Below, piece after piece: positions 17,292 through 47,336 of a stretch of 57,369 nt of DNA. The notes under the pieces were generated by a model, which worked only from the letters and a program-made list of their open reading frames with translations, was not told the origin of the DNA and did not search any database. The number at the start of each line of letters is the position of its first letter. The first letter of the stretch is position 1. Made by a program: the position numbers and the translations under genes. Source of the stretch: a virus (Duplodnaviria; Caudoviricetes). The stretch spans positions 1-57,369 of the IMG/VR virus record IMGVR_UViG_3300010354_000105. One strand, 5' to 3'.

Positions 17292-17301
17292 TTTAAGAAC
17301 G

Positions 17302-21017: not shown

Positions 21018-22217
21018 TTAGAGCTCCGTTCTAACTATGGTTACATTTACTGTGATTGTGTTTGCACTGACGCCAGTATTTGTGACGTAAATTGGTATTT
21101 GATTGGTCACTGGGTTTTCGTCGTTGAATCCCAGTACCGCAGGTGATAACGTTACAGTTTGATTAACTGTGGTAGTTATAACTTCGGCAATAATACCAAC
21201 ATCTGGAGATGGATCAACGCCTTGCGATCTAGTTAAATCAAGAGCGCGGGCCGCAATATTTGTATACAACCTTACCCAGGCTGGATTACTTACTTGTATT
21301 TTATATAGATTATAACCAGTGAACCCAGTTATAGAAGCATTAGCATTGGCTCCAGCGGCTAAATTAGTCACTGTAACACTGGCATTACTTCTGCTGACTA
21401 AACCAGTGGCGCCGGTTGCACCAATTGACCCCGAAGTCCCGGTTGCACCAGTGGCTCCGCCTGGACTACCTGTAGGACCAGTTGCACCAGTGGCTCCCGA
21501 AATTCCCGATACACCACTGGCACCAGTTGCACCAACAGGTCCGGCTGGTCCTAAACTAGCTGTAATCCACTGGCCGCTGTCGGAGTCAACATAATAAAAA
21601 TAAAGTGATCCAACATTGCTAGCCCACCATAGCGTTCCGCTAGATGGACTTGACGGCGGATCATCGCTTACAGCGATCGTAAGAATCGGTCCTGTGGCAC
21701 CAGCAGGCCCTGTTGATCCTGTTGCTCCTATTCCTGTTGCTCCTGTCGCACCAACACCAGTGGCTCCTGTTAATCCAGTGGCACCAGTGGCTCCGCCAGG
21801 ACTACCAGGACTTCCAGATGGGCCTGTTGCACCAGTGGCTCCCCCGGGATTACCTTGTGGTCCAGTGGCCCCTTGTACGCCAGTTGCACCAGTGGCTCCG
21901 CCTGGGCTACCAATATTACCTTGAATGCCTTGGGCACCAGTTGCACCTTGTGTTCCGCCCCCTAGTTCAACCCATTGACTGCTGGTATTGTCATTAACGT
22001 AGACATATTGTTTACCAGAATCTGAATCTATCCAAATGTTAACTCGATCAGGATTAGCAACGGTGGCCGGTGGAATTTCGCTTACTACAACAACACCCCC
22101 AGCAGTTGATCCAACACTGCTGGTCCTAGACCAAGCGTCTTTGGCACTGTTATAGGTATATAATGTACCGTTAACAGTTACTTGTTGACCATTAGTTGGA
22201 TTTGACGGAAAAGGCAT
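21018..22217 (-). CDS. Collagen-like fibre protein
   Basis: Long G-A-T/G-x-y runs separated by Trp-containing knobs ([24 protein letters not shown]); N-terminal FPSNP..G motif. Confidence 0.85.
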
Positions 22218-26633: not shown

Positions 26634-29600
26634 TTAAGTCCAGAAGGTCACTGGATCTTTCTTACGTTGTATTTCATGCAATGGATTTCGAGAATTGGCT
26701 GGTATTTTGAATACCTCTAATCTTCCTTGGGAATCGGATGATGGAATTAGAACAAAACCAATGGCAAAATCAACAACATTAAATTTATATCTGGCCTCAA
26801 GTCTACCAAAAAATCTTTTATCTAGTACATCTACTAGATTTGCTGCAACTTGTTTTTGAAGGTAGGAGAAATATCTATTATCTGAACGATTTACAAGATC
26901 AAGTACTTCACTGACAACTTCCCTAGGAGCATTAATAAGCCCATCGATTTGTATTTGTGGCCCCATTAGTCTTAACTGCAACTTGGCAACTTCGCTAATA
27001 CCAAATGTTTTTTCGATTCCAGGAACAGTTACTACCTTTTGGAAAGCCCGATTTAAAACAGCAATTCTTTTATCTAAGGGGAAGTCCTGCCATAATTCCC
27101 AAATACTGCCTTTCTTGAGTCCTAACTTAAGAATATTTCCTAAACTCAATCCGAGACTCTTTGATGAGCCTTCTTTTTCGTCGGCTAAGAAAGTGCCTTT
27201 GTTGATCATCAAGGTTCCGCCAGACAAATTCAATGCTGACACACCTTTGTATCCAGGTACTCGTTGAGCAAAATATAGTAAATCTCTGGGCTTGTTGGCC
27301 GACGAGGTTGTTATAATACTATAAGTTGTTTGTGCTATGACTGCGTTGCCTGTTGTGAATGCAGCATTTGAAGTAAAGGGGTAAGATGCACCGGTACCGT
27401 AGACGATTCTTACTGCACCACCTGCACCGTCACCACCTGCCACAGCATAATTAAATGCAGTACCAATTGGGCCGCCTCCTGATCCACCACCGCCATATGA
27501 TCCGCCTGGGCGCCCGTTTCTAGGAATAAATTCAGAAAACGTTGACCCATTTGTCCCACTGCTACCACCAGAACCGCCACTGCCACCTGTGAATGTGGTG
27601 CCAACATAAGAATTAGCGGTCCCGTCCCACGCTAACCTAGACACCCTTACATTATACAAACCACCGAAAACTTGATTACCTGAATTAAACGAACTGTCAA
27701 AATATACAGTTTGGTTCAAACCATAATTAACTGAATATAGCAGTGTAGTTCCGTTGTAGTGTTTGATGAGCCCGTCGGTGTCATAAACTATGTAAAATTT
27801 ATTATTAGGATTCCATGCACCGCTGAAAAAAACTTGAGTGCCATTGTGGTGAACTGAATAAATGTCAGTTCGATATGGGTAGGAGGCGTAATCTAGTGTA
27901 TCAAAACTAGCATTGGTTGCAGGATCACTATTCCAACCTATCATGGTATATCCTACACCATTATCTCCAGAATCGGCTCGTTTATTAAATTCAATAGTAC
28001 ACGGTGCTGTAAAAGGCTGTAGAGAATAAACTTGTGCGTCCCAAGCATCGCCTGCTGCCGATCTATACATGTTTGTGTCAACAAACGAAGTAGCAGGACT
28101 GTTTCTAAATTGAAATCTAACATGACTTATATAAGAAGCCTCGTCTGTGGCAACTTGGTCTGCGCCAATGAAATGACCGATAGTAATATTTGCCGCAGTG
28201 TGATTAATCCATCCTGTGTCTACATAAAAGTATCCATTGAAACCGTCACCTCTATTACTGCCCCAAGGTGCGTAACTGTACCCATTGTAAGTTCTCCAAG
28301 AAAAATTTCCACCATTGGCACTATTTGCCGAGCATAAGTTTATAGTAGTTGAACTTGCACCGGCCACGTTCCAAACTTTGGTAAATTGTAAGTATCTAAC
28401 TCCCTCGACATCAAAGAAATTGGTTTCGCCATCGACACTGTCAACAAAATGCCAGTAAAAACTATATCTGACTTGTGTGTGCTGCGGAATAGAACTAGAG
28501 AAAAAATAGAACCAAGTGGACGGAGAATGCCCGTGTGCAGTGGTGTTACCAAATCCGCCCATCTGCGTCATATTAAATGTTGTAGTCGGGCTCCAATTAT
28601 TTAAATAGGGTGTGGCATCGTTACCTTCGTAGTATTCTGTTGGTCCTACTAGGTTAACGGTGCCCGAAGTAAGATAGTTCATCTGCTCGTAAACTACTTG
28701 TGATGATGTTAATGTGGCTCTAGGATTTAAATTTCCTGCTGCCCCAGTGGATCCCGATTGTAATAACCCGACACCACCGCCGCCACCACCGGCTGACCCT
28801 ACATAATCATAGATAGATGGGCTACCATAAACGCCTGCTCCGCCACCGCCGCCTCCCCCAACTGCACTAGTAGCGATATTGGCAGGTACTGTGCCTGACG
28901 TATGTGCATCGCCACCGCGACCACCAGAACCCGAATAACCACCAGCACCGCCACCACCTGCCGCAGCCCTGAATCCAGAACCAGTCCAAGTACCGCCGGG
29001 GCCGCCTCGGCCGCCACCGTCGCCTACATACTCGCCCCCAGGATTACCAAGTGATAAACCAAAAGTTTCTACTAAACTTGCATCGGCTGCGTTAAGCGGA
29101 TATGTTCTTCCGCCGCCCCACATGATCCTTACAGCACCTCTCCCGCCAATACCGCCGGCACCTGACGCAGTTCCGCCACCGCCATACAAACCACCATTAG
29201 CAGCCCGACGATTTGCTTCAGGTAAATTTGGTGCACCTTCAGTGCCCCAGGTACCGTCTGTACCACCTGAACCTCCACGACCGCCTACCGTTTCAAAATC
29301 AGCACCTACAGCGCCAGCACCACTGGTGCCTTGACCTAGTATACCTACACCCCCACCACCACTGGGCCGTTGACCAATGTAAACTCCATAATCACGTGCA
29401 AAAGCGCCGCCACCGCCGCCGCCACCGCCGGACCCATTTTGTCCATTAAGCCCGGTTGTTGCATTGTAGCCTCCGCGTCCTCCACTTCCGCTATACCCGC
29501 CAGCACCACCAGCACCGCCCTCATAAAATAATGCAGTAGGGGTTCCACCTTGACCACCAGCACCACCGCCATCACCTACAAAAGATCCACCTGCACCACC

Positions 29601-31646
29601 TGTTGATCCACCAAATCCGGCCACTGTTGCAGTGCTTATAAAATAACTTGCTCCGCCATTGGCATTTAAAGCGCCACCGGCACCAACTACCACAGTGTAA
29701 GTTTGTCCCGGGACAACCGGAATGTTATTTCGCCAACCAAGGCCTCCCCCGCCACCGCCGTTGTTGGTGGCTGAGTTCGGGCCACCGCCACCGCCAATGG
29801 CCACTACACTAACACTGGTAACACCAGCCGGGGCAGTCCAAGAATAAGTACCGGCAATGGTATAGGCAATCTGACCAATGGTCTGAACAGTACCTCGTTG
29901 GCTCAGTGCTACTCCTCCCCCACTGCCGCCGAATCCTGCTACTGTAGCGTTACTCAGGAACCAACTGTCACCTCCATTGTTGCCTAACGAGATACCAGTG
30001 CTCAGTGCGCCGCCGCGACCACCTTCGCCTACTCGAATTGTGTAACTTTGCCCCGGGGACACTGCAACATTTCCCCATCCTAAACCTCCACCGCCACCGC
30101 CTTCGCCATGGTTTGAGCCACCACCTCCGCCACCAACGGCTACTACACTAACACGAGTCACGCCCGGGGGTGCCGTCCAAATATAAGTCCCCGGTAAGGT
30201 ATAAGTAACCTCGCCCTTTCGTGTGTTATTTCCAAAATAATCGTCTAAATCCTTATCAAGTGCTTGATAAGGCACTATTGGCGCTTGGTCCGCAATTAAT
30301 CGAGAAGTAGTATTAATTACAACACCACGACGTCCAGGTGCCAACGTAGAGAACCAATATCTGCCCAGCGCAGTCGATAAATCAGTAACAGTAGGGTTCG
30401 GGAAATTTAATAACAAGTTCGCTTGAATTGTTAAATTGCCACGAAAAGCACTGTCAGCAATGGATTGTCTTAGGTCGGGGATGTTATCTCTGTAACCATA
30501 CAGTCTCGGAGCGACAGAAAGATAATAATAAAGTTCTCTTGAATTCTTTGGTCTAGTGGTAGGTTTAACCAGGGTCTGTGGATAAACTAGGCTATAATCT
30601 TTTTCCACATAGAATGTGGCACCAACATTAGTCACAAACACATTGGCTGTGACACTGCTGTTTGTAGCGGCTAAAACTTGTGTGGTTACTGTAAACCCGG
30701 TTGTGGTATCAATGATTCTAACGTTTGAATTAACCGGAAATGGTACAGCATCTTGATAAGAAAATGACAGAGTAGTGACATTGGCGGTGTCCCTGGTATA
30801 AGGTGTTAAAAAGTCGTTGTCGTCGAGATAAAAAGAAACAGTATTACCAAAGGGCGTTGTATCAATACCGGTGACCAATAATCTCAAATCACCTGGTGTT
30901 TCTGTGGTATAATTAACAGGACTCAGTGTTTGTAGAATGCCAATGTTGCTGGTGATATTTTCACCTAGGTTTCGATCAACACTTAAACGTACAGTTTTAT
31001 TATTTTCAGTGTATCTAGAAGCCAGCAGTCTTTCCTGCGGAGTACTGGCCGACCTCCAATCTTGATAGGGCAATTGTGCAGTGGGTTTTACAAAAGATGA
31101 CAAATTCTGTATGGTCATGCCACCTAAGTAATCTATAGGGAATCCTTCAATACTGTTAAAAGTAACAGTGTTATAATCGGTGCTGATTACATTGGCTGTG
31201 GCAGAGAAACCTGTGTCAGAATCTTTGATTAAAACTACATCACCGGCATCAAATTTATCAAAATACTGCATCCTAATAGACGATGTTTCATCTCTACGAA
31301 CCACTGGTTGATTATAAGACAATCCAGTTTTAATTGTGTTAACAGTGGGCATGCCATAGGCTGTTAACACAATATTTCCATAATTACTAGAATTCTTTGT
31401 GACTACGTCATTGTCAACAAAACTCAAGACCAACACAGAACCAGGACTGATAGTGGCTGCTGTGTTGGCTCCTAGTACACCCACTGTGGTTGTGGTCAGA
31501 GTGTCAACATTTGGTGCTGTAAAATTACCAGTGTACAGTGCCTGACCAGTGGTGATTCTAAAATTAGAAATATAACCCTTAAAGAATCCAGTGGTAACCG
31601 GAGTATCGTAAATGAACGGATCAAATGAATCTATACTATTAGGCAT
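26634..31646 (-). CDS. Large modular virion protein (1670 aa): C-terminal part of a LamG domain, beta repeats, nested Gly-rich modules, lectin-like domain and basic tail
   Basis: Begins with FKGYISNFRITTGQALYTGNFTAP, the LamG C-terminal strands. Contains two GTY.WTAP.GVT.VSVVA.GGGGG modules. Confidence 0.7.
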   Translation of the reverse strand: MPNSIDSFDPFIYDTPVTTGFFKGYISNFRITTGQALYTGNFTAPNVDTLTTTTVGVLGANTAATISPGSVLVLSFVDNDVVTKNSSNYGNIVLTAYGMPTVNTIKTGLSYNQPVVRRDETSSIRMQYFDKFDAGDVVLIKDSDTGFSATANVISTDYNTVTFNSIEGFPIDYLGGMTIQNLSSFVKPTAQLPYQDWRSASTPQERLLASRYTENNKTVRLSVDRNLGENITSNIGILQTLSPVNYTTETPGDLRLLVTGIDTTPFGNTVSFYLDDNDFLTPYTRDTANVTTLSFSYQDAVPFPVNSNVRIIDTTTGFTVTTQVLAATNSSVTANVFVTNVGATFYVEKDYSLVYPQTLVKPTTRPKNSRELYYYLSVAPRLYGYRDNIPDLRQSIADSAFRGNLTIQANLLLNFPNPTVTDLSTALGRYWFSTLAPGRRGVVINTTSRLIADQAPIVPYQALDKDLDDYFGNNTRKGEVTYTLPGTYIWTAPPGVTRVSVVAVGGGGGGSNHGEGGGGGGLGWGNVAVSPGQSYTIRVGEGGRGGALSTGISLGNNGGDSWFLSNATVAGFGGSGGGVALSQRGTVQTIGQIAYTIAGTYSWTAPAGVTSVSVVAIGGGGGPNSATNNGGGGGGLGWRNNIPVVPGQTYTVVVGAGGALNANGGASYFISTATVAGFGGSTGGAGGSFVGDGGGAGGQGGTPTALFYEGGAGGAGGYSGSGGRGGYNATTGLNGQNGSGGGGGGGGAFARDYGVYIGQRPSGGGGVGILGQGTSGAGAVGADFETVGGRGGSGGTDGTWGTEGAPNLPEANRRAANGGLYGGGGTASGAGGIGGRGAVRIMWGGGRTYPLNAADASLVETFGLSLGNPGGEYVGDGGGRGGPGGTWTGSGFRAAAGGGGAGGYSGSGGRGGDAHTSGTVPANIATSAVGGGGGGGAGVYGSPSIYDYVGSAGGGGGGVGLLQSGSTGAAGNLNPRATLTSSQVVYEQMNYLTSGTVNLVGPTEYYEGNDATPYLNNWSPTTTFNMTQMGGFGNTTAHGHSPSTWFYFFSSSIPQHTQVRYSFYWHFVDSVDGETNFFDVEGVRYLQFTKVWNVAGASSTTINLCSANSANGGNFSWRTYNGYSYAPWGSNRGDGFNGYFYVDTGWINHTAANITIGHFIGADQVATDEASYISHVRFQFRNSPATSFVDTNMYRSAAGDAWDAQVYSLQPFTAPCTIEFNKRADSGDNGVGYTMIGWNSDPATNASFDTLDYASYPYRTDIYSVHHNGTQVFFSGAWNPNNKFYIVYDTDGLIKHYNGTTLLYSVNYGLNQTVYFDSSFNSGNQVFGGLYNVRVSRLAWDGTANSYVGTTFTGGSGGSGGSSGTNGSTFSEFIPRNGRPGGSYGGGGSGGGPIGTAFNYAVAGGDGAGGAVRIVYGTGASYPFTSNAAFTTGNAVIAQTTYSIITTSSANKPRDLLYFAQRVPGYKGVSALNLSGGTLMINKGTFLADEKEGSSKSLGLSLGNILKLGLKKGSIWELWQDFPLDKRIAVLNRAFQKVVTVPGIEKTFGISEVAKLQLRLMGPQIQIDGLINAPREVVSEVLDLVNRSDNRYFSYLQKQVAANLVDVLDKRFFGRLEARYKFNVVDFAIGFVLIPSSDSQGRLEVFKIPANSRNPLHEIQRKKDPVTFWT

Positions 31647-31647
31647 A

Positions 31648-34600
31648 TTAATTTATTGTAAAGCTACCGCCTCCGAAAAATGCACGATATGTGTAAGAAC
31701 CGCCAACATAGGCAGTGCCGCCTGTTATATTTAACGATCCTGTAATATATCTAATGATCACAATGCCGCTGCCGCCGCTGCCGCCGCTGCCGGACCCTGC
31801 ACTGCTTTGACCCCCACCCCCACCACCTGAGTATTGAACGCCGTTGCCCCCATTGACATTTTGTCCCGATGTTGATGCTAACCCGCCACCGCTGTTGGTG
31901 TCAACTGTGCCCTGTACACTATTATCAAATGTACCCCCTGCACCACCTCCGGCGAATCCACCGGCTGTTAGTCCTAGTGTGTATGTCCATTCAAAGAAAC
32001 TGCCGTAAACACTTTGTGCTCCGTTGCCGCCGTTGCGTCCTGAACCTGCTGATCCTGCACCACCTCCACCACCGCCCCAACTGTTTAGCGTTCCGCTGCC
32101 GCCTAGACCATCACCGGCCCCAGGAGCACCATTATTACCCTGCGGCGACGAACCTGAACCTGCCGCGCCTGCACCTATGTTTAATGCACCACCACCCCCT
32201 GACCCCCCTGACCCACCGCCCGGAGTACTTAATCTACCAGCACCACCACCACCGCCTAAGGCAGTAATGTTTATGCCTGGTCCCGAAATTGAAGAATTGC
32301 CACCAGTACCCCCTCTACTAGATGTCGACGTTGCACCCGAGCCGCCGCCACCGACGCCCACAGTGTAGGTTCCATATCGGTAGAAGGTCTTGGATCCCGA
32401 ATAGTTTGAACCAGTTCCGCTGTTGACACTGTACCAGAATCCACCAGCACCACCGCCACCACCAATATCTTTTCCGCCTCCACCACCACCGCCGACTATA
32501 ACAAAATCCAAGGCAACAATTGGGTTAGCATCATTGACTGTGACTGTGGCTGCTGTTGCTACCACTGTGCCACTGGTGCTGTTGATCCTTAGTTGCAAGA
32601 CTATGGTTTCACCTGGATCAGCAACTAAATCTGCTACGGTGTTTAATGTAATCGATGCCGACCCCGAGGCCTGGGTTCCGGTTATTGTGACATTGCCGCT
32701 GTTCAGGCCATCGCTGAAATCAGATCCAGTTGTTGATCCAGCGTTTGTCCAATATAACACAGTTCCTGGCAGGATATTTGTTGTAGCAATGGTAAATGTT
32801 ACACTTTGTCCTTCGGTAATGGTTGTAGTACTTGGTGTAATAGAATATGTGGCATCTAGCACTGTCACAGCCGAACTGGTGGCCACTATTGGACCAGCAA
32901 TGGAATTTTCTCTCAATTGAATAATAATTGTTTCGCTGCCTTCTGTGGCTGAATCCAAGGCAGATGTAACAACAAACGATGCAGATCCAGATGCGTAGGT
33001 TCCATTTATTACCACATTTCCACTGTTTTGTCCTGAAGCAAAATCGGCTGCACTTGTGGTGCCGCTGTTGGTCCAGAAAATAGTGGTTCCAGGAACAACG
33101 TTGCCTGTAGTGATCGAATATGACACTGAACCACTTTCAAGTATAGTTGCCACATTAGGTGTTATAGTATACACAGGAGTCAATGATGTATCAGTTACAG
33201 TAATTGTCTGGGAAGTTGCTAATAAAATACCCCCTGCTGAACCGTATCTGAGATCAATGACCATGGTTTCCGGGCCTTCAGTGGCACGATCATTGGCCAC
33301 TGTGATTGTGAAGAAGCCTGAATTATTTGTTACTGTAAATGTTCCTTGATTTGACGCACTTGTGAAATCAGTGACTCCATTGGTGGTACCAGTGTTGATC
33401 CAATAAAACACTGATCCATCACTTACATTAGTGGTGCTAACCGTAAAGCCAACTGTGTTTCCTTCGGTGACTGTTAGTGTATTTGCACTAATAGTACCAG
33501 TGAACAGAGCCAAATTAAGTATCCCTGACGTTGTAAAAGTATGGTACACATAACCACCAATGGCTGTTGCATTACCTCCGGTACCTAAAACTGTATTTCC
33601 GGGATAGCGTATTACAGCTACTCCACTACCACCTGCTTGCCCTTGTTCTGGGTTGCCGTCGGCACCACCAGCACCTCCGCCACCACCGGTGTTTGGTAAC
33701 CCAGCAGTACATCCATTGGTGCTGTATGTAGCACTGCCACCTCCGCCTACGCCACCCACAGATCCAGTTCCGCCACCGCCGCCTGCGAGATAATATACGC
33801 CTCCACTCAATTGACCCACTGTGCTATGTGCTGCTGGGAAAGGGTTGGCTAGGCCTGCACCACCGACTCTATTAGAACTTGTACCACCAAATCCGCCGAC
33901 GGCTCCTGCACCACCACCACCGCCGGGTTGTCCAAATTGATTAGAACTTCCTCCATTATTTCCTGAACCATAGCCGTATGTGGAATTCTGTATTGCTACT
34001 CCCGGAGAACCGTAAATTCCACCTGATCCGCCACCGCCTGAACCACCATTACCACCATAGTTACCTGCATTAATGATACCACCCTGACCATAGCCGCCGC
34101 CTAGGGCAACTATGTTGGCTGTGCTAATTGATCCACTGGAGTACATGGTTACATTCGCGTTAGAGAAAAAACTGCTAGCAGTACCATTATAGACGGGATC
34201 ACCTTGATCGGTCCACACCGGTCGTGCCCCACCTGCTCCAATGGTAACATAGTATTGAGTCAGTTTTGCTAATCTGACAGGTAACGAAACATAGCCACCA
34301 GCACCACCACCACCGGCATTGTGATTTCCACCATTGGCATAACCACCAGGACCGCCGCCACCGATTAACAGTAATTCACCAAGTATTAAATCGTTGACCA
34401 CAATCGACGGCGCTGACGCCACAATCGGGCCTGACGTGCTATCGGTCCTTAGATCAAAACTCAAATACTCTGTATTTTCTGCTACCGCATCATCGAGAAC
34501 ACCAAAATCAATAAATGCATTATCATTATTAATCACAATCGAGCCCGAAGCGATTCCGCCTACTAGGTCAGCCGATGACAAGGTGCCGCCCAAGGTCCAA

Positions 34601-37600
34601 TAGTAGGTACTCAAGTTCGGGACATTGTTGCTGGTTATTGTAAATCTTACGCCACTTCCTTCAGTGATACTGCCACCGGCAATATTTGATGTAATTGTAA
34701 ATGTAGGCGCTGCATCAAATACTTGCACCGGATCAGCCGATGCTTTAATAGCACCTGATGGAGAACTTACTCTAATATCAAGAATCATTGTTTCAACAAC
34801 ACCTTCATACCTATCCAATGCAGGCACTATGGATATGGATGTTTGGGAGTTGTTTATGTAGGCTACACCTGAATTTATATTTCCTGCGAAATCTGTGGCA
34901 GATACGTTACCACTCAGTGACCAATATAAAACTGTTCCGTTTGGCACATTTGGACTTGTGGTCACTGTGTACAGTACCGTATTGCCTTCAAATACAGAAC
35001 TCACGTTTGATGTTATAGTGATAGATCCAAAATCAACCAAGGACACGTTTGGTGATGTGGCTAAAATTAAGTCTGCTGCAGAAATTAATCTAAAATTCAA
35101 TACAATGCTTTCTGTATTTTCATCTACAATATCAAAATTGGTTGTTCGTGTAACTGTGACAGACCCATTCGACAGAGTTGCGTTTCCAGACATCAGCCCG
35201 TCATTGAAGTCAGCAGCATTTGTTGAACCTACGTTTTCCCAAAAAATATTAATTCCATCAGGTAAGCCAGAAGTGACCAGAGTAAATGTAACTGATTGCC
35301 CTTCAAAGATAGAATTAGCAGTTACGTCGACGCCGGATGTTCCTGCTGTTGAGAAAATGTAGATTGGATCGCTGATCTTATAAATTAAACTGTCGAAACT
35401 TCTGGTTCTCAAATTGATAAAGAATCGTTCAAGCGCAGTATCCGGATCAATGGTAGGCAAGGTAACTATGGTCGCCGAATTATTTAAAAATGTAGTTGTG
35501 CCCGAGGACGGACTTAGATCTGTCGAAGTTATTTCTCCATTGGTGGTCCACCAGAGTTGTGTACCATTGGGAATGGCCGAATTAGAAACCACTGTGGCAA
35601 CCACATTCTCTCCTTCGGTGTACACTCGTTTTGGAATAGAAATGGAAATGTTAGCCACTGGGGCCGGTAAACTTTCTCTAACAATAACCGTGTTTGCTTG
35701 TGCTACAATAAATCCCGTCACACTGTTAATTCTTAAATCTAAGTTTACAGTCTCATTGCCTTCGAACAACAAATCTTCAACTGTGCTAAAAATAAACGAT
35801 CCAGTGACTTGATTTGAGCCTATAGACGAAACAGTAAACGATCCATTAGCTGAAATTATATCGTTTGAACTTATTGTAGAAGTATTTCGTAAAGTATAGT
35901 ACAATCTTGTGTTATTTGGTACATTTACACCCGATACCTGATATACAATGGATTCGCCTTCAAAAATACTCTGAGCGCCCGGTGTTATAGTGAAGACGTA
36001 ACCTTGCAAGAAACCACTTGAAGTAAAGGTATGCACAGTATAATTGCCTAATGTGCTGATATTACCACCAGCAAACCATGGCGCACCAATATACCTTGCG
36101 ATTACTATGCCTGAGCCCCCATTGCCTCCATTGTTATTAACATTATAGTGTGAACCGCCGCCACCACCGCCGCCGGTGTTAATTCCTCCAGCACCACCAG
36201 GAACATTTGTTTGACTATTAAGGGTACCCACTGTGCCGTTGCCGGCAAAATTTATACCATTGGTGTCACCGTAGCCGTCAGTGGTTGACGTTAGCGACGA
36301 TCTTGGCGCTCCGCCTCCTCCGCCACCAAGACCACCATTGCCTCCATAAGAAGTATATCCCGCGCCGCCACCGCCACCGCCCCAATATAGTATTCTACCT
36401 AATATGGTATTCAATACACCCGCGCCGCCTGTGTTATAAACTAACCCAGTGCTGAACATTTGATTGGAGTCAGCCGAGGTAACGTTTCTGTTTCCGGCAC
36501 CACCGCCACCGGCAGGATACCATTGGCCTCCTGAAAATCCTCCAGTAAACCCTTGTCCAGGTATGCCCCATCCGAAGTTGCTTAATTGTCCCGAAGCACC
36601 ACCACCGCTGGCTCCTGAACTAGCAGGTGTATTAGTAGTGGTAATATCGTGTGTGGTCGCTCCTGCGCCACCGCCTTGTGCTATTCTTGATTGCGAATAA
36701 TTTTGATCATTTACACTGTAAAAATTTGTAATGTACTTAGACTCAATGGGATAACGTACTATGGCAATACCATTTTGCCCGCCGTTGCTGTTTGATCCGC
36801 CATAACCGGCCTGATACCCGCCACTGGTTCTTAGGTAATTACCAACATCACCGGGGATGTCAAGATTACCATTGGAAAACGCTGTGTTGACCAGCAGCGG
36901 AGAATTTGCTGAGTAGGAACTTCCGCCTCCACCTCCGCCCATGGTGTTGGCCTCAGAATAACCACCACCCGAGCCACCCATCCAACCGCCACCTCCGCCC
37001 CCACCATACGAGTTAGTTCTGCTGTTGCCACCTTGGAACAATGCTTGGTTACCAGCAGTGTTTGCGCTGTCCGAACTGGCGTCGGCTCCTGGAATAAATT
37101 GAGTACCACCACGACCTGCATAACTGGTTTTTCCATCATAAGGAGAAAAACCGTTTTGACGATTGGGATAACCGCCGGCACCACCTCTATTGGCCGATCC
37201 GGCGCGACTTGATCCGCCACCGCCACCGCCTGCGGCAAGCAATAGAACTGTTTGTGAATTATAAACATTACTATTATACAAGGCAGTAAATCCGCCGCCG
37301 CCACCTCCATAACTGTTGTCAGTGCCATTGAAACAAGCAGATCCACCGCCCATGTTACCGCCGGCTGCACCCGAGTTATAGTTTCCGCCACCGCCAATGG
37401 CAACATAATATCTCGAATACAGTGTAGGAGTTATTTCTGTTCTAACTGCTGCACCACCGCCTCCATAGGATCCTGTGCCCCAACCACCAGGTCTTCCGCC
37501 GGCACCGCCTGCGCCCCATAAAAATATCTCTATTCTATCAGTGCCAACTTGGTCAATGGTCAATGTAGCGTTTCCACTGGTAATAGTATGAACGTTATAT

Positions 37601-39564
37601 AATCTACCATTTACATTGGCCACAGTGGGCAATATAGGAGTAGCACCATCGATATTAGAATTTACTGTGACAATATTTCTTACAAATGGTTGAGCGTTGG
37701 CTTTGGTAGATTGTTCTCCTACCAAGAAAGGATTAAATGTGGTAGTGTAAGGATTACCTGATCCCACAGACAAAGTTAAATTGCCAGCACTGTCAGTAGT
37801 TGCTGTGCTAGTTTGGCACAGCAAGGTAACAGTGTTGGCCACAGTTGTAAGAGCACTAGTCGAAGGAGTAAAGTTTGCTGTATAGATCGCAGTACCCACA
37901 ACTAATCTATAATTAAAAATATATCCTTGGAGGTTTGAAGTATTGTTCTGTGCTGTGCCAATGGTCAATGTGTCACTGGTCGGTGTTACGGCTGTGCTGT
38001 TATTCCCAGCACCTATTAGTGTGCCATTTCTAAAGAAACACCATGCACTGCCATTTCTAACCATGGCAATGTGATACCATACCCCGGTGGTCACCGATGT
38101 GGTACTACTTTCAGTAAAATCAAAACCACTGCTGGTATTAAAGTAAAATCTCCAATGTTGGTTGGCTATGCTGTCTTGGCCGGGGCCACGAAGTTGTAAA
38201 ATCCACTGACTCGAACTATTCCATTTACCAGTGATGTTGACGTTTACAGCATTGATCCCAGTAAAATACACCCACATTTCCAAAGTAAAACTACCGGATC
38301 CGAGATCAGTTTGAGTAGTTTGCCCAACGCTAAGATAATCACCAGTTCCGTCAAAAAACGTCGAGGCTATGGCGCTGGTTGTTAAACCAAATGGATTTAC
38401 ATACTGTGCGACTGTGTCACCAAAACGTGTTATTGGGAGATTGTTTAGACTACTGTCTATTAGATTATCGGTTTGGCAGGTCAGCAGTGTAGTTCCTGCC
38501 ACTGCTACCAATGGGCCAGTTGGAGGTGTAAAATTTATTGAGTAGACACTTGTACCGTTTACTATTCTAAAATTAGAAACATATCCGTTGAACCAAGATC
38601 CGTCGCCATTTATATTAAAGAAATAACTGCCTAAACTAAAAGTTCCGCCGGTGGTGGCTGTGCCAAAATTAAGAGAACCATTGGCATAACGCAAAGCACC
38701 GTCCACAAACATCAACAAGGTATTAACGCCAGCACGAACTATGGCCACATGATGCCAGGTGTTAAGCCTAATTAGGCCTATTGGCGATGTTACCGGAAAC
38801 CCACTTTGCCATGCCCAACCTCCGGTGCCCATGCCAAACTGCACTTCGCCATTGGTTAATCCAACCCACATTTGATAAAACAACTGCGAGCCACCGGTGC
38901 CTAGACTCATCACAGACCCATTGTTACCTAAACTGGCATTACGGTAAAACCATCCTTCAATGGTCCAGTTGTTGTACAAATTGAGATTTAATGCTGCGAT
39001 AGGTGGTGCCGAAATTGCGTCGCTGTCGCCGTCAAAAAATATAGAATTTGATCTGGTTAGACCGCCGGCATCAACTTCAGAACTCTTTAATAAAGAACTT
39101 GATCCACCAACTGTGCCCCTGGGCACACGAGTTCCTGCAACTGCCCCGGTACCGCCTGCACCAACTGTGACAGTGTGTGTGGCATTTAGATCTAGTACAA
39201 CGTTGCCAGACAAGACACCGCCACCACCACCGCCGCCTCCCATGTCAGATCCGCCACCTCCGCCGGCGCCTACGATCAAGTATTCTACATTTATTTCTTG
39301 TGCTACCCGTAATTTAATCAATCTAGAAATTGACGTAAACCCATTGCTAACTATGACATAAAATGGTGGAGTTTCAGTGATGCCGTACAAATTGGTTGTA
39401 GTTCTTAGATACCCAGTGGCAGAATCAATGGTAATATAATCAGGATTCCCTGACAACGAATAAGTCATAGTTGATCCCGCTGAATCACTGGCCACCACAG
39501 GCATATAACTCAGTGATCCGGCGATTGCCGGTATAGTATAAGTGTATACAATATTATCGGGCAT
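31648..39564 (-). CDS. Giant adhesin-like virion protein (2638 aa): cadherin/He_PIG-like Ig domain, 2 LamG domains, 4 Gly-rich modules and 8 Calx-beta/Ig-like repeats
   Basis: Two LamG copies (FFDG.GD..S, (W/F)T(I/L)E.W.Y, WHH(V/I)A.VR, G.(V/I).N(F/Y)R). Eight copies of .EG..V.(F/Y)T..T.N...GT..(Y/F)W...G.....DF. Confidence 0.8.
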   Translation of the reverse strand: MPDNIVYTYTIPAIAGSLSYMPVVASDSAGSTMTYSLSGNPDYITIDSATGYLRTTTNLYGITETPPFYVIVSNGFTSISRLIKLRVAQEINVEYLIVGAGGGGGSDMGGGGGGGGVLSGNVVLDLNATHTVTVGAGGTGAVAGTRVPRGTVGGSSSLLKSSEVDAGGLTRSNSIFFDGDSDAISAPPIAALNLNLYNNWTIEGWFYRNASLGNNGSVMSLGTGGSQLFYQMWVGLTNGEVQFGMGTGGWAWQSGFPVTSPIGLIRLNTWHHVAIVRAGVNTLLMFVDGALRYANGSLNFGTATTGGTFSLGSYFFNINGDGSWFNGYVSNFRIVNGTSVYSINFTPPTGPLVAVAGTTLLTCQTDNLIDSSLNNLPITRFGDTVAQYVNPFGLTTSAIASTFFDGTGDYLSVGQTTQTDLGSGSFTLEMWVYFTGINAVNVNITGKWNSSSQWILQLRGPGQDSIANQHWRFYFNTSSGFDFTESSTTSVTTGVWYHIAMVRNGSAWCFFRNGTLIGAGNNSTAVTPTSDTLTIGTAQNNTSNLQGYIFNYRLVVGTAIYTANFTPSTSALTTVANTVTLLCQTSTATTDSAGNLTLSVGSGNPYTTTFNPFLVGEQSTKANAQPFVRNIVTVNSNIDGATPILPTVANVNGRLYNVHTITSGNATLTIDQVGTDRIEIFLWGAGGAGGRPGGWGTGSYGGGGAAVRTEITPTLYSRYYVAIGGGGNYNSGAAGGNMGGGSACFNGTDNSYGGGGGGFTALYNSNVYNSQTVLLLAAGGGGGGSSRAGSANRGGAGGYPNRQNGFSPYDGKTSYAGRGGTQFIPGADASSDSANTAGNQALFQGGNSRTNSYGGGGGGGWMGGSGGGYSEANTMGGGGGGSSYSANSPLLVNTAFSNGNLDIPGDVGNYLRTSGGYQAGYGGSNSNGGQNGIAIVRYPIESKYITNFYSVNDQNYSQSRIAQGGGAGATTHDITTTNTPASSGASGGGASGQLSNFGWGIPGQGFTGGFSGGQWYPAGGGGAGNRNVTSADSNQMFSTGLVYNTGGAGVLNTILGRILYWGGGGGGAGYTSYGGNGGLGGGGGGAPRSSLTSTTDGYGDTNGINFAGNGTVGTLNSQTNVPGGAGGINTGGGGGGGSHYNVNNNGGNGGSGIVIARYIGAPWFAGGNISTLGNYTVHTFTSSGFLQGYVFTITPGAQSIFEGESIVYQVSGVNVPNNTRLYYTLRNTSTISSNDIISANGSFTVSSIGSNQVTGSFIFSTVEDLLFEGNETVNLDLRINSVTGFIVAQANTVIVRESLPAPVANISISIPKRVYTEGENVVATVVSNSAIPNGTQLWWTTNGEITSTDLSPSSGTTTFLNNSATIVTLPTIDPDTALERFFINLRTRSFDSLIYKISDPIYIFSTAGTSGVDVTANSIFEGQSVTFTLVTSGLPDGINIFWENVGSTNAADFNDGLMSGNATLSNGSVTVTRTTNFDIVDENTESIVLNFRLISAADLILATSPNVSLVDFGSITITSNVSSVFEGNTVLYTVTTSPNVPNGTVLYWSLSGNVSATDFAGNINSGVAYINNSQTSISIVPALDRYEGVVETMILDIRVSSPSGAIKASADPVQVFDAAPTFTITSNIAGGSITEGSGVRFTITSNNVPNLSTYYWTLGGTLSSADLVGGIASGSIVINNDNAFIDFGVLDDAVAENTEYLSFDLRTDSTSGPIVASAPSIVVNDLILGELLLIGGGGPGGYANGGNHNAGGGGAGGYVSLPVRLAKLTQYYVTIGAGGARPVWTDQGDPVYNGTASSFFSNANVTMYSSGSISTANIVALGGGYGQGGIINAGNYGGNGGSGGGGSGGIYGSPGVAIQNSTYGYGSGNNGGSSNQFGQPGGGGGAGAVGGFGGTSSNRVGGAGLANPFPAAHSTVGQLSGGVYYLAGGGGGTGSVGGVGGGGSATYSTNGCTAGLPNTGGGGGAGGADGNPEQGQAGGSGVAVIRYPGNTVLGTGGNATAIGGYVYHTFTTSGILNLALFTGTISANTLTVTEGNTVGFTVSTTNVSDGSVFYWINTGTTNGVTDFTSASNQGTFTVTNNSGFFTITVANDRATEGPETMVIDLRYGSAGGILLATSQTITVTDTSLTPVYTITPNVATILESGSVSYSITTGNVVPGTTIFWTNSGTTSAADFASGQNSGNVVINGTYASGSASFVVTSALDSATEGSETIIIQLRENSIAGPIVATSSAVTVLDATYSITPSTTTITEGQSVTFTIATTNILPGTVLYWTNAGSTTGSDFSDGLNSGNVTITGTQASGSASITLNTVADLVADPGETIVLQLRINSTSGTVVATAATVTVNDANPIVALDFVIVGGGGGGGKDIGGGGGAGGFWYSVNSGTGSNYSGSKTFYRYGTYTVGVGGGGSGATSTSSRGGTGGNSSISGPGINITALGGGGGAGRLSTPGGGSGGSGGGGALNIGAGAAGSGSSPQGNNGAPGAGDGLGGSGTLNSWGGGGGGAGSAGSGRNGGNGAQSVYGSFFEWTYTLGLTAGGFAGGGAGGTFDNSVQGTVDTNSGGGLASTSGQNVNGGNGVQYSGGGGGGQSSAGSGSGGSGGSGIVIIRYITGSLNITGGTAYVGGSYTYRAFFGGGSFTIN

Positions 39565-42500
39565 TTATATGTTACTCACAAACGTCCACGAAGGTTGTGG
39601 TGCACCAGCGAATCCAATTCTGAATTGTGCGTTGCCGCTGGGACCAATAACTTGATTCGTTCCGACGATGGTTTGTTGCGCTCCATTAAAGTAAACAGTT
39701 ACAGTATTATTTTGAATAACTATGGCTAAATGAGTTATATAACTTGTATTTAAGGGTTGTTCAGTTCTACAGAATAATCGGGTTTCATAGGCTCCTTTTA
39801 CAGGCGAAAAAATATCTAAGGATCTAGGATATACTTGACCAAAGCAAATTTGCAACTGACTATTTAAATAGATATCTAACTTATCGGTGTAATAAAAATT
39901 AGAATTACTCCATAAACTTGTAATCACCTGTATCGGTGATCGTGCCATGGGTCGTATCATCATTTCAATTGTGGTTGGTACAGAACCAAATCCCAACATG
40001 GCCGAAGGCGACGATTCAATGTAATCTTGATATCCGTCGAAGTACACAGCCGGGCTTTCTAAACGTACCACAGGATTAATTGTCACTGACTGTGTTGGTG
40101 TAGTATTACCGGCTGTTAATGTTAATATGTCGTCGTCGTCTAAATACAGTTGTACCAGGTTGTTGGTTATTCCAGACTGTCCAATAACCTGCATGGGCGG
40201 CTGTACAATGCCTTCGTTTATGTATTTTCTTAATCCAGCAAAACTGTTTCTCAATGGTTCATCATTGACCACGTAAAATTTATTAAACGCAGGGTTAATA
40301 TTGCTTATTCTAGAGATGGTGCCAGTGATACCCAATTTATCGGGTATAAATCCGGTTTGCGGACGAATTTTGAATGAAGCCGGTTTTTCAACAGTTAAAT
40401 GAGTAAATTTATGCCTGATGAACGTTCTATTCACACGGGCAAGATACAATTCGTTTACCGGAACCGAAAATCTCGGTACTATCCTGACAGGAATAGGTTG
40501 ATAATAAAATCTTTCTATGTGACTACTAATGGCCATGGCAACGTTAGCCATGGCCAATCTACCCAATCGAGCAGTGTTTCTTAAAGTTCGATCGTTATCG
40601 GTCCTTAGAGTAAACACTTGTTTTTGTAACAAATTAACTCGTTGATCGAAATCCACTGCGGACAAAGTACTTGCTTTAATAACAGGTATTACTTTACCCT
40701 GTGTTTTTAAAACGTTTTCTAAATTAAGACTTACTGCGTCTAAATTAATATTTGTATTAATAAATTGAGATTTGTAAATCGGTTTTAGTAAGTCTATTAG
40801 ATAGCGTTCTTGAGCCGTGTAACTAGATTTTGAAGTTAACGTAGTGACATTAGAAATATTATTTCTTGTAACAGTTGTAACCACATTTGAATCAAGACGA
40901 GCGAATCTTGTTCTCAAAAATTCTATGTCTGTTAAAGTATGAAAATTGCCAGAGATTCTTTTTTCAATCAAAGAAACATTGTCTAATAGGGCGTCAGTTG
41001 ATACACTAAATAAATTTTCCGGTCTTAATCTAAGAGTGGCTTGATCAACTTTGTGGAACAGATTAAATCGGTCAGCCGGGATTACTTTTGTACGATCTCT
41101 ATCAAGTTGAGCGAAAGATGCTGATCCATGCTGAGGATAAACATCGTGCATTCTTCTGAATACCATCTGTGGCTGAATGTACGTGGCTTCACGTCTGTCG
41201 GGCGGCGGCACAAAGAAACGAGGCCCAATTACACTTATTTTGGGCAATGGCGCCAGGTAACTTTCTCTGGTGGCCATAAAGTTTGAAAATTTTGGTTCAA
41301 CTACGGCTCGATCTGCCAAGTTAGTAGGATGGCTTCTTAGTTTCGTTTCTAAATTAACAACGCTTCTTTTGCTTAAACTTAAATTGGTCGCGTCTTGTTC
41401 TTGTTTAAAGATAGCGCGAACACTGAATCCCATGGGATTATTACTGACCCAACTAATGTCAGGTCTTAACGGAAGTGTCTTGTCCCTGTTTAAAAATACC
41501 GGTAATAAACTGCGTGAAGGAGTTCCTTCCTTGAATACATACACTGAACTGGACTTAAATGCACCAAGTTTTAGTTGATTGTTCAAATTAATTTCGCGAA
41601 GTTTTAAGGAATCGCGATTTAAAATTCCTGGCAGTATTCGAGACTCATTGAAGCCTTTGATAACAAACTGACTTCGTTGTGCAAAACTAATATGAGATTT
41701 GGTTACTAGGTCATTGACTTTATTATCCGCTGGCCTTGCATCAACAAAACTGTAATTAATTTTGTCTGTGCCAAGTATTACTTGAGCACGATAAGGAATC
41801 CCAAAGTAAGTACTGATATAATAATTTGCCTTGGGTGAACTTATGTTACCAACAAATGAATTCAATCTAAAATCGTTGATGATTTTATCTTGTGTGTAAA
41901 CTGGACTAGAGCCTCTAGCAAGAATTACAAACTTTTCAGATATTGGATCAGTGGTGTTAATGGTAACAGTTCTAGTCGTACATGCTGCCACTGTGTAAAT
42001 TTTAGTGATACCAGCAAAGGCATCGGTTACTCTTATGTTTTCGCCTACTGCATAAGGCACAACTGCTTGTTCAGGAATATATAAAATCTTGGTTGCGGAT
42101 GTGCTAACAGTAGGTTGAAAAACATCTAAATCATTAATATAATAATTTGCAGTCTCATAGGTTACAGTGCTAACACCTAAGATGTTGATAATCGGCGGAA
42201 AATCGTATGAATAATCAACATAATCAGTTAAATTCCCTGAAACTGAAACTAAATTCGGTGATAGAGTTGATAGTCCTAATATAGCATATGAATTAGCCTG
42301 CGTTGAGTTGTACTCGGTGGGTGTTGAACCTAATTCTAGTTGTGGCCAATATACATTAACAGATCCAAAATTCGATCCTACTGTGTTATCTACTAAAAAT
42401 ATAGTCGACAAATTGCATTGACTGCCAGTGGTAAACGTTGAAACTATTCTAGAAAATGTGTTAGCATTAATGTTAGTAGTATAGTTTGTGGCCTGAACTA

Positions 42501-42918
42501 TATCCAACGAATTGGTATTATCTACTATTCGATAAAATACATTCGCAGCAGTGCCGGATTTAGCATAAAAAGAAAGTGTATAGGTGGTATTAGGCAATAC
42601 CGATATTCTTTGACCAAATGATGTGCTGTTAGCCGTGACTGTAATATTAAAACTGTCATCGTTGTTTCTAAAAACAGTAACGCCATTTGGTAATATGGGA
42701 TCGTTGTCGTATTGATAATAATTAACATTATCAAAATCAGCAGTAAAAGTGGTGTTACCAGTCTGACGTAGCCAATTTGTTCGAGTTAGGTCTTCGGTCC
42801 AGATTAATAAATTAGTATATCTATAAGTAAACACCGGCGTAACATCAAACCCACCGAAACTGGTTAGATGTTGTACTGCATTAGGAGACCCAGGAGCCGG
42901 AAAATTAAGTTGAGGCAT
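39565..42918 (-). CDS. Modular virion protein (1117 aa): CBM-like domain, basic degenerate repeats and the N-terminal two-thirds of a LamG domain
   Basis: CBM-like segment TNLL.WTED...PNTTYTLSFYAK...QLELGSTPTEY. The C-terminal VYFDG..DYI...TIEM.IRP...THLAIV.....VTVYFNG...FRIG is followed by a stop. Confidence 0.7.
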   Translation of the reverse strand: MPQLNFPAPGSPNAVQHLTSFGGFDVTPVFTYRYTNLLIWTEDLTRTNWLRQTGNTTFTADFDNVNYYQYDNDPILPNGVTVFRNNDDSFNITVTANSTSFGQRISVLPNTTYTLSFYAKSGTAANVFYRIVDNTNSLDIVQATNYTTNINANTFSRIVSTFTTGSQCNLSTIFLVDNTVGSNFGSVNVYWPQLELGSTPTEYNSTQANSYAILGLSTLSPNLVSVSGNLTDYVDYSYDFPPIINILGVSTVTYETANYYINDLDVFQPTVSTSATKILYIPEQAVVPYAVGENIRVTDAFAGITKIYTVAACTTRTVTINTTDPISEKFVILARGSSPVYTQDKIINDFRLNSFVGNISSPKANYYISTYFGIPYRAQVILGTDKINYSFVDARPADNKVNDLVTKSHISFAQRSQFVIKGFNESRILPGILNRDSLKLREINLNNQLKLGAFKSSSVYVFKEGTPSRSLLPVFLNRDKTLPLRPDISWVSNNPMGFSVRAIFKQEQDATNLSLSKRSVVNLETKLRSHPTNLADRAVVEPKFSNFMATRESYLAPLPKISVIGPRFFVPPPDRREATYIQPQMVFRRMHDVYPQHGSASFAQLDRDRTKVIPADRFNLFHKVDQATLRLRPENLFSVSTDALLDNVSLIEKRISGNFHTLTDIEFLRTRFARLDSNVVTTVTRNNISNVTTLTSKSSYTAQERYLIDLLKPIYKSQFINTNINLDAVSLNLENVLKTQGKVIPVIKASTLSAVDFDQRVNLLQKQVFTLRTDNDRTLRNTARLGRLAMANVAMAISSHIERFYYQPIPVRIVPRFSVPVNELYLARVNRTFIRHKFTHLTVEKPASFKIRPQTGFIPDKLGITGTISRISNINPAFNKFYVVNDEPLRNSFAGLRKYINEGIVQPPMQVIGQSGITNNLVQLYLDDDDILTLTAGNTTPTQSVTINPVVRLESPAVYFDGYQDYIESSPSAMLGFGSVPTTIEMMIRPMARSPIQVITSLWSNSNFYYTDKLDIYLNSQLQICFGQVYPRSLDIFSPVKGAYETRLFCRTEQPLNTSYITHLAIVIQNNTVTVYFNGAQQTIVGTNQVIGPSGNAQFRIGFAGAPQPSWTFVSNI

Positions 42919-42934: not shown

Positions 42935-42963
42935 AAAAAAAGGCTGCACTAAGCAGCCTTTTT
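42935..42963. terminator. Intrinsic terminator
   Basis: aaaaaaaggctgc-actaa-gcagccttttt. Confidence 0.85.
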
Positions 42964-45962: not shown

Positions 45963-47336
45963 TCATATGCTTAACAAGGTCATAGTTAAATTTTTCCCTG
46001 ATCCGGCTACCACATTCACCGTGATGTAATCATTGGTATTTATGTCAATTGACAAGTTGGTGATCCTAGTGGTTTGGTACCCGGCAGGCAAGGTCAAAAA
46101 ACTCAAAAAGTCATTGTTTCGATACAGACCTAGCATGATATCAACGCCAGCAACGGCTCCGTTTGTTATCTGCACTGATCGTATGGTAGACTGGGAAATG
46201 GGCACAAACACTTGAGTTCCGATCAAGGGTGCACTAAAATCATTTAGAATGTTGTAGGTTTTAATGACCCCGCCACCGCCCCCGGCGCCACCCAAATTAT
46301 TAACCTGTACTGCGCCCGATCCCAAATCGCTGATGGTAAATCCGCCGCTGTCGAAACGTATGCTAGTGACATTGTTTACAGCGTTTGATATGGTATTGCC
46401 TGAAATTCTGCTGACAGATATGCTGCCGCCTACATTACTGGCCCGCCATTTTCTAGTATTGCTGTTGAAAACAAGTGCTTGTCCTTCAGTGGGCCCAATA
46501 GACAAATCTACGTCAGCAAAATTATCAATGGTGCCCAACCCTGCAACCAAAGTGGTAAACACAATGGCTTCGACATTGGCACCTTGAACCGGAGGAGTGT
46601 TAAATGTAAGTACGTTTCCAGCAACATACCACTTGGTAGTGTCTTGGTTTACGCCATTGATGTAAACCAATGTGGTTTCAGGTATGGCTGGCTGCGCTGT
46701 GAGATTGTATGTGGTTTGAACGCCATCGACACCCGAAAATAAATCCCGTATAAAAATCGAAGTCGTATTAGTAATAAACGAAATTACTTCTACTTTGGCA
46801 TTGGCAGCAGGAGCGCCACTGAATGTGATTGTGCTGCCACTTAAGGTATAAGCAGAATTATTTTGATAGACGTTATCAACGTAAACTTGAACTTGCTGCT
46901 GATTAAGCGGAGTGCCACTTAAACTAAAAATAGATTGAGCACCAGTTCCAGTAAATTGGTCCCTAAGGAAGTAATTGTTAAGATAACCTGGCAGTGCACT
47001 ACCGCCGCCACCACCGGAAATATCAGATCCTGGCGCCCATTTTGCGCCATTCCATTTTAATACTTGCCCGGCTGCTGGTGTACCGGTTATCTGTACATCA
47101 CTTAATGCACTAAGAGTACCGCCGCCAATGGGCACACCACCGATAGTGGATCCAGCCGGAAGGTTAACAATATTACCCGAAGAACTAATAACTGCTGAAC
47201 CTAAGGTGATGGTATTGCCAGTTAAAACCAGATTTCTAAGTACAGGAACCCAGCGTTTACCGTCAAATCGGTAACTTGCATTACCTTGATTATAAGTTTG
47301 TCCTGTGGTGGGATTCCCTGGAAATGAGATTGGCAT
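45963..47336 (-). CDS. Fibre/baseplate-associated virion protein (457 aa)
   Basis: N-terminal FPGNP..G..Y...YRFDGKRW; two LS.L.DV.....P..GQ.L.(W/F)N...W motifs; two F.G.G.Q..(F/Y).L...P......VY(V/I).(N/G)V.Q repeats. Confidence 0.7.
   Translation of the reverse strand: MPISFPGNPTTGQTYNQGNASYRFDGKRWVPVLRNLVLTGNTITLGSAVISSSGNIVNLPAGSTIGGVPIGGGTLSALSDVQITGTPAAGQVLKWNGAKWAPGSDISGGGGGSALPGYLNNYFLRDQFTGTGAQSIFSLSGTPLNQQQVQVYVDNVYQNNSAYTLSGSTITFSGAPAANAKVEVISFITNTTSIFIRDLFSGVDGVQTTYNLTAQPAIPETTLVYINGVNQDTTKWYVAGNVLTFNTPPVQGANVEAIVFTTLVAGLGTIDNFADVDLSIGPTEGQALVFNSNTRKWRASNVGGSISVSRISGNTISNAVNNVTSIRFDSGGFTISDLGSGAVQVNNLGGAGGGGGVIKTYNILNDFSAPLIGTQVFVPISQSTIRSVQITNGAVAGVDIMLGLYRNNDFLSFLTLPAGYQTTRITNLSIDINTNDYITVNVVAGSGKNLTMTLLSI

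Follow-up and report, generated by a model that had tools for sequence, protein, structure and literature searches.

The viral contig IMGVR_UViG_3300010354_000105 of IMG/VR (Duplodnaviria; Caudoviricetes) is a linear sequence of 57,369 bases with a completeness estimate of 17%, and nearly all of its large open reading frames (ORFs) lie on the minus strand. We analysed the whole stretch, called here the window, and focus on three adjacent minus-strand ORFs, A, B and C. A laminin G (LamG) domain is divided between the first and the last of them: A ends in a LamG domain without its last strands, C begins with a peptide corresponding to these strands, and the giant gene B occupies the break. The three ORFs and their main motifs had been reported in a preliminary description made from the letters alone, at about the positions where we find them, and its coordinates agree with ours. 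In the following sections, ORFs are compared with relatives from other contigs, designated P (proteins) and L (loci), and the features of the locus are collected in Table 1.

A LamG domain divided between A and C

The C-terminal part of A belongs to the Pfam family Laminin_G_3 (PF13385) of concanavalin A-like lectins, to which B contributes two full copies. The LamG piece starts at A 958 and continues to the C-terminus, and the Pfam model is matched by A 962-1111 over positions 2-131 of 151, as compared to positions 143 and 140 reached by the copies of B. When A 907-1117 is scanned alone, the match scores 28.2 bits, over the gathering threshold of 27.6; in full-length A it scores 22.2 bits and remains under that threshold, and the copies of B score 52-65 bits. 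The 69-residue head of C scanned alone gives no Pfam match, even at E≤10, and the whole PF13385 model is found on one chain neither in A nor in the head of C. To place both pieces on the same scale we used a custom profile of 212 positions, built from 292 LamG units of other proteins. The tail of A falls on positions 22-177 of this profile (E 2e-22) and C 16-47 on positions 175-206 (E 3e-13), so that the two pieces are complementary beyond chance, their one overlap being the loop that precedes the strand GYISNFRI. The same holds for their relatives: the tails of five of five stand-alone A homologues and the equivalent region of three of three A-B fusions reach positions ~14-184 at most, and the heads of seven of seven members of the C family cover positions 170-211. 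What distinguishes this case within the family is that no single chain has the whole domain, its remainder being on a protein encoded 7.9 kb downstream.

These placements bear on two claims of the preliminary description. That A ends in the first part of a LamG domain is correct as to the incompleteness of the domain, whereas the share carried by A is ~85% and not two-thirds; that C starts with exactly the strands missing from A agrees with the profile, in which the fragments, instead of overlapping along their length, share only the loop. C 21-45 reads FFKGYISNFRITTGQALYTGNFTAP. A few residues at the break point are ambiguous, since MAFFT alone lays the last residues of A, TFVSNI, over the start of the strand of C, GYISNF. 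A protein search with C 1-480 returned 53 matches, 45 of them to LamG-bearing proteins that resemble only a short part of the query (5-26% of the 480 residues).

The repeat module that encloses the LamG is divided as well, as had been proposed. Its start contains YLDDDDIL (A 925-932) and its continuation includes C 132-153 (FDAGDVVLIKDSDTGFSATANV). Intact copies of the repeat are present at A 216-321 and C 238-335, which resemble each other with E 6e-05; the intact copy named in the preliminary description corresponds to C 272-335. The YLDDDDIL match by itself is marginal (E 0.17), and the split of the module is confirmed only through the unsplit relatives described below, in one of which (P0079) the module runs intact across the position of the break.

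Table 1. Features of the divided gene and its surroundings; positions refer to the window unless another contig is named.
Feature	Position	Strand	Remarks
ORF A, 1117 aa	39565..42918	-	N-terminal half of the ancestral fibre protein; head motif MPQLNFPAPG; head common with unsplit relatives
Repeat-module start (first two strands), A 905-951, includes YLDDDDIL	40066..40206	-	aligns to P0079 477-541
LamG without last strands, A 952-1117, short tail ending TFVSNI	39568..40065	-	Pfam PF13385 and custom profile
ORF B, 2638 aa	31648..39564	-	sits in broken LamG loop; immunoglobulin-like (Ig-like) head, glycine-rich domains, Ig-like repeats
Two complete LamG copies in B, residues 161-356 and 359-576	38497-39084 and 37837-38490	-	
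ORF C, 1670 aa	26634..31646	-	C-terminal half of the ancestral fibre protein
Missing last LamG strands, C 16-47 (GFFKGYISNFRITTGQALYTGNFTAP)	31506..31601	-	custom profile 175-206
Further strands packing on the LamG of A, C 72-105	31332..31433	-	predicted complex only; profile independent E value 0.87, not significant
Remainder of interrupted repeat module and next intact module, C 131-404	30435..31256	-	collinear with P0079 552-831
C terminus KKDPVTFWT	26637-26663	-	common to unsplit relatives
Upstream flanking gene, 967 aa	42983..45886	-	synteny anchor
Downstream flanking gene, 1049 aa	23166..26315	-	synteny anchor; virion structural protein
Single unsplit gene, L011	10001-15151		
Single unsplit gene, L012	6648-12203		
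Single unsplit gene, L013	3656-11998		

Unsplit relatives in the same genomic slot

The preliminary description had proposed a search for an unsplit gene that joins A and C. An exhaustive profile-free search with C 1-480 returned proteins that contain the C 131-400 region internally; among the 23 candidates inspected, eight combine the head of A with the modules of C (P0068, P0074, P0078, P0079, P0098, P0105, P0115 and P0165); the custom profile detected a LamG in none of these eight proteins. The clearest case is P0079 (1430 residues), where A 1-438 matches residues 1-425, A 888-951 matches 477-541 and C 131-404 matches 552-831 (E 1e-31; 3e-30 in another search), with 10 residues between the last two segments and the enclosing module uninterrupted. 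Similar matches to C 131-404 were found in P0074, P0078, P0098, P0105, P0115 and P0165. The unsplit fibre proteins are about 30-34% identical to A or C and keep both ends: a head of FPAPG type is found in 11 of 12 (P0109 has YPVPG instead) and a terminus of QFWN type in 11 of 12, and ten of ten C-type proteins end in FW(S/T).

Scanning viral contigs with the unsplit proteins gave 14 loci, and we examined the three with full-length matches, L011, L012 and L013. In all three, one gene of 1716, 1851 or 2780 residues, respectively, lies between orthologues of both genes that flank A-B-C in the window (62-63% identity for the upstream 967-residue protein and 51-61% for the downstream 1049-residue protein), and its product has a head like that of A, modules like those of C and the end KEPIQFWN. 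These products, P0079 and the other unsplit fibre proteins thus share with A-B-C the slot, the N-terminal head, the repeat modules and the FW(N) end; unlike the split form, they lack a LamG and do not match B. In a phylogenetic tree the proteins with a LamG form one monophyletic group (100/99) among relatives that lack it.

Because the syntenic gene is unsplit, A, B and C fill the slot of one ancestral gene. An unsplit homologue in the same slot, together with two pieces that are conserved and co-occur, is the pattern expected of gene fission, and these sequence comparisons support the proposal of the preliminary description, namely a single ancestral protein of which A and C are the two halves, with the gene of 2638 residues interrupting it. 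Compared to P0079, ~2,930 residues (A 952-1117, all of B and C 1 to ~128) replace a loop of ~10 residues. By alignment, the insertions are nested like Russian dolls: the repeat module has the LamG in one of its loops, and this LamG in turn has B in one of its own.

Other parts of these proteins also vary. Residues 481-1480 of C contain glycine-rich domains and a domain at ~1003-1180, which have no match in any of the eight unsplit relatives, and C therefore carries further insertions; the same central domains are common to other fibre genes, in the window (47360-52525 and 56281-57216) and in L005-L008. In P0006 and P0007, two homologues of A, an extra insertion of ~125 residues separates a YLDDNDIL motif from the LamG and occupies an adjacent loop of the interrupted repeat module, and P0015, a homologue of C, has ~370 extra residues directly after the peptide that carries the missing strands. 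Nested insertions seem to accumulate in this module.

Conservation of the broken ends

The broken ends recur in all relatives examined, namely five of five stand-alone A proteins, three of three A-B fusions and ten of ten C-type proteins. The A homologues P0005, P0006 and P0007 (61-63% identity when the full alignment is counted, 54-65% within the part used for searching), as well as P0061 of the metagenome locus L003, end at the same residues as A, and the five stand-alone A homologues all finish with FRIG or LRIG, seven variable residues and F[VT][SG]N[IV]. On the other side of the break, the C homologues P0009-P0015 (33-80% identity in the N-terminal part) all start with Met-Pro-Asn followed by the strand peptide (7/7), as do the distant C-type proteins P0066, P0067 and P0069 (3/3), and this peptide stays at the extreme N-terminus even in proteins only 33-38% identical to C. 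It is also the best conserved part of C, with a mean identity of 0.87 for C 20-45 versus 0.54-0.57 for the rest of the protein. In A, the residues predicted to contact C have a mean identity of 0.74, versus 0.59 for the rest of the LamG and 0.47 for A 1-904. The strand peptide of C and the contact residues of A are under purifying selection.

Both pieces are present in one genome in the window and in L003, where A, B (2112 residues), C (1389 residues) and the 1049-residue neighbour follow in this order, with ~62-64% protein identity to the window. In L002, the junction between the end of B and the start of C is identical in kind to that of the window. Two further pairs, P0063/P0010 and P0065/P0014, have longest contigs of equal length (52078 and 28279), from which their placement on the same contig is deduced. 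The loci L006 and L007 were set aside as too distant; their C-like genes are without the strand peptide.

The three longer relatives of A that were found, P0063 (3245 residues), P0064 (3660) and P0065 (2471), are all A-B fusions, in which the truncated LamG of A runs directly into the first Ig-like domain of B; the split forms differ from them by ~7 extra residues around the stop and start. Since A and B form a single ORF in three relatives, B may have arrived as a set of domains inserted in frame and not as an independent gene. A tree built from the N-terminal region requires two changes between the split and the fused state, so that the A/B boundary was opened or closed more than once. The chain break between B and C is present in all forms and that between A and B is variable. 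We found neither a B-C fusion nor an A-C fusion with an intact LamG, an absence that is weak evidence given the limits of the search (word sharing, length windows and clustering at 50%).

Predicted assembly of the two pieces

We co-folded A 905-1117 with C 1-175, each with its own alignment of eight rows. Three runs gave ipSAE (interaction prediction score from aligned errors) values of 0.89, 0.89 and 0.88, and the best of three controls gave 0.00; in the calibration of the tool, which is only roughly valid for such own alignments, 58 of 80 solved complexes attained the ipSAE mark, as did 2 of 110 mismatched pairs. At least 62% of the contacts are shared between the runs, and the pLDDT (predicted local distance difference test) of the partner is 61 or more. 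In the predicted complex, C 22-32 pairs with A 982-989 and A 958-960, and C 72-105 also packs on A. We take the position of C 22-32 to be that of the canonical strand of the LamG sandwich. Each partner gains confidence from the other: the pLDDT of A is 70-71 with C versus 52-54 with unrelated partners, and that of C is 62-64 with A versus 43 without it. The strand complementation between chains that the preliminary description had put forward is consistent with this prediction and with the conservation of both ends.

Predictions of A in isolation were less confident. In the AlphaFold2 (AF2) model of A 906-1117 alone (mean pLDDT 54.8), A 948-994, where the contacts with C would lie, and A 1104-1117 are below pLDDT 50 and no terminal strand is built, and for the whole of A, with an alignment of four rows, the mean pLDDT was 26.3. 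A Foldseek comparison of the low-confidence model of the A tail with the PDB gave no match at E≤0.001, and phmmer with the second LamG of B against PDB sequences gave no match at E≤0.01.

Our preferred reading, to which we give a probability of roughly 0.7, is that C supplies the missing LamG strands to A (or A-B) and thereby rejoins the fibre backbone, with B as a side arm. The ancestor would have been a tail-fibre or virion structural protein of a T4-like cyanophage relative, with an MPxLxFPAPG head, a KKxPxxFW(N/S/T) tail and a series of repeat modules between the two. In the present lineage a LamG is placed in the loop of one module, and a block with Ig-like, glycine-rich and LamG domains, namely B, in the loop before the last strands of that LamG. 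A (or A-B) and C would be made as separate proteins, and the N-terminal peptide of C (~17-47, plus ~72-105) would insert as the missing strands into the incomplete LamG of A; this insertion would rebuild the domain and reconnect the two halves of the backbone, and B would then project from the joint. We infer a branched-fibre architecture with B as an adhesin arm, and the glycine-rich, LamG and Ig-like content of B suggests a role in receptor binding. A further and more tentative proposal, which we hold at somewhat under even odds, is that the LamG would act as the non-covalent snap joint of the branched fibre: the backbone would be cut inside the domain, an adhesin arm of 2,638 residues would leave from the cut loop, the second half of the backbone would attach by strand donation, and three arms would meet in one reconstituted beta-sandwich. 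Since the A/B break varies and adjacent loops have received additional insertions, such a joint would seem to be an evolvable socket for exchanging arms.

Several observations weigh against assembly in trans. It is a model prediction made with shallow alignments (eight rows), and two parts of a known fold can reach a high score because they resemble LamG structures already solved. The co-fold gave no confident contacts between A 905-953 and C 106-175, and the reassembly of the enclosing module is therefore not predicted. The low confidence of the AF2 monomer makes the missing strand in the model of A alone weak evidence. The role of TFVSNI is ambiguous, since this segment of A could align as the start of the missing strand, and in the A-B fusions it continues straight into B. 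Finally, the tree gives no order for the fused and split states of A and B, either of which could be ancestral with two changes.

Alternative explanations

The most serious alternative is that evolution has left the two pieces as remnants without the ability to reassemble; A (or A-B) and C would then attach elsewhere or act independently. The dependence of the A-C association on a prediction that may succeed by fold likeness leaves room for this explanation, as do the A-B fusions, in which a truncated LamG is tolerated in a continuous chain with the Ig-like domain of B directly after it. A functionless remnant would, however, be expected to decay, and no part of A is better conserved than the residues predicted to make contact, nor any part of C than the strand peptide (0.87 vs ~0.55), which is also kept at the extreme N-terminus across proteins that have otherwise diverged widely from C; we consider this explanation unlikely. 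Still less can be said for a fusion of A, B and C into one product of ~5400 residues by recoding (readthrough or frameshift), which the preliminary description had offered as its other option. Such a product would be favoured by the A/B junction of the window, where the TAA of A is followed immediately (0 nt) and in frame by the ATG of B, and by the existence of A and B as one ORF in three relatives. The frame relations are nevertheless not conserved: at the B/C junction of the window one nucleotide separates the TAA from the ATG of C, and in L003 the A/B junction reads TAA TAA, one nucleotide and ATG, with a B/C spacer of 17 nt. A conserved frame relation with a single leaky stop was not found, and ten of ten C-type proteins begin at the same Met-Pro, so that we regard recoding as very improbable.

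An assembly chimera or sequencing error as the origin of the breaks might be suspected from the B/C junction: among the records listed, contigs of three of four runs (X2, X3 and X5) end at 31637-31666, exactly there, X7 leaves the junction uncovered and none bridges it by 31 letters on both sides. These contig ends may reflect a strain-level branch point in the assembly graphs. Against an artefact, the independent contig L003 has the identical A, B, C order and break points, the B-end/C-start junction recurs in the independent contig L002, the A/B junction is bridged by contigs of four of four independent runs, and the stretch is present in 20 runs from 14 studies. The refuting case raised in the preliminary description, that of chimeric junctions, is hardly credible in the face of these contigs. 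An equally poor candidate is a fractured gene whose halves would be ligated by split-intein trans-splicing, with B merely intervening. Two halves with a gene between them do resemble the fractured genes reported in PMC2677866, but there is no space for intein halves (A extends 10 residues beyond the LamG profile and C begins 15 before it), no Hint or intein family was detected in A or C at E≤0.01, and neither N- and C-intein segments at the break nor a homing endonuclease between the halves was found, B being a protein of glycine-rich, LamG and Ig repeats. As for an excision or inversion of B in the DNA of part of the population, which would restore A-C, we found no supporting evidence; the longest word common to both junctions has 8 nt versus a shuffled mean of 8.06, and among the 15 joints listed of 51, from four runs, none links the end of A to the start of C, the listed joints lying in glycine-rich repeats with sides of less than 30 letters. 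Such a rearrangement is most improbable. Strand donation by C to A remains the reading that we prefer over all of these.

Relation to known systems and significance

Nested domain insertion and strand donation between subunits are both known. In the chaperone-usher pili, donor-strand complementation lets the N-terminal strand of the next subunit complete an incomplete beta-sandwich, which links the subunits into a fibre. The present case differs in several respects: the domain is a LamG jelly roll and not an Ig-like pilin, at least two strands are predicted to be donated, there is no sign of a chaperone, the two partners stem demonstrably from the fission of one chain, and their binding is a prediction. 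Gene fission is likewise already known, and it is here combined with nested domain insertion. Fractured genes with split inteins, as reported in PMC2677866, have two gene halves separated by another gene; here, the wedged gene encodes a giant structural protein, which is fused to the first half in some relatives, and intein motifs as well as room for them are lacking. Literature searches, at the level of listings and the opening lines of abstracts, returned no description of two phage proteins that divide a LamG or another fibre domain between them and have a giant protein at the point of division.

If the proposed assembly is true, the locus would constitute a natural and conserved example of one domain whose pieces are carried by different virion proteins and come together in trans, and whose unsplit ancestors are clearly documented for this genomic slot. 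It would mean that giant fibre proteins can grow by domain nesting, followed by a chain break without loss of connectivity. For annotation, the rule would follow that truncated LamG ends in such loci are not pseudogenes, and the compact pair (~210 plus ~110-175 residues) would be a natural fragment-complementation module and a handle for modular fibre assembly.

Neighbouring genes and genomic setting

The 1049-residue neighbour downstream of C matches phrog_5838 ('virion structural protein') at E 2e-249 and 154 phage records, 123 of them of Synechococcus phages, with ~39-42% identity. It is ~40% identical to annotated virion structural proteins of the cultured cyanomyoviruses S-RSM4 and S-PM2, so that by homology the locus is a fibre or structural cluster of a relative of the T4-like cyanophages (Kyanoviridae-like). 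As in the structural cluster of these phages (SRSM4_036-041 in S-RSM4, and S-PM2), large structural genes are grouped, and the window contains several giant proteins with glycine-rich (PF21722), Ig-like and collagen-like domains, plus a subtilase. A, B and C, in contrast, have no detectable match in the S-RSM4 locus (tblastn, E 1e-3). Against phage records, the 16-kb region gave no match by megablast, and A gave by tblastn a single weak N-terminal match, to a minor tail protein of a Xanthomonas phage. Scans of viral contigs with A, the A alignment or the C alignment as query returned no relatives. Near-identical DNA occurs in 20 public runs of 14 studies, with mostly freshwater labels, and no RNA run is among the sequencing runs listed for the stretch.

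A GC-rich hairpin with a T-run lies at 42935-42960 (minus strand), between the 967-residue gene and A; it is followed by TATAACTAAATA and then by the ATG (seen by eye). This hairpin suggests that A-B-C begin a transcription unit. It was not listed by the consensus scan for promoters and terminators, which performed at chance both for sigma-70 promoters (38 versus 35.0 expected) and for terminators (12 versus 14.7 expected).

The subtilase gene (Peptidase_S8, E 1e-20; 19352-21016) adjoins a gene for a collagen-repeat fibre protein (21018-22217) in the structural cluster. The latter belongs to four smaller minus-strand ORFs of the fibre cluster (16620-17267, 18717-19325, 21018-22217 and 45963-47336) with a common N-terminal motif of the type MP(L/I/F)xFPxNP, and a Met-Pro start is present in 10 of the 25 large ORFs listed for the window, including A, B and C. 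This Met-Pro type of N-terminus may be a shared attachment or processing motif. Finally, the G+C content rises to 0.49-0.53, with a strongly negative GC skew, at 14001-18000, 28001-30000, 32001-34000, 36001-38000 and 48001-50000, compared to ~0.42 elsewhere. These stretches coincide with minus-strand segments coding for glycine-rich sequences, and their composition looks like an effect of codon usage and not of foreign DNA.

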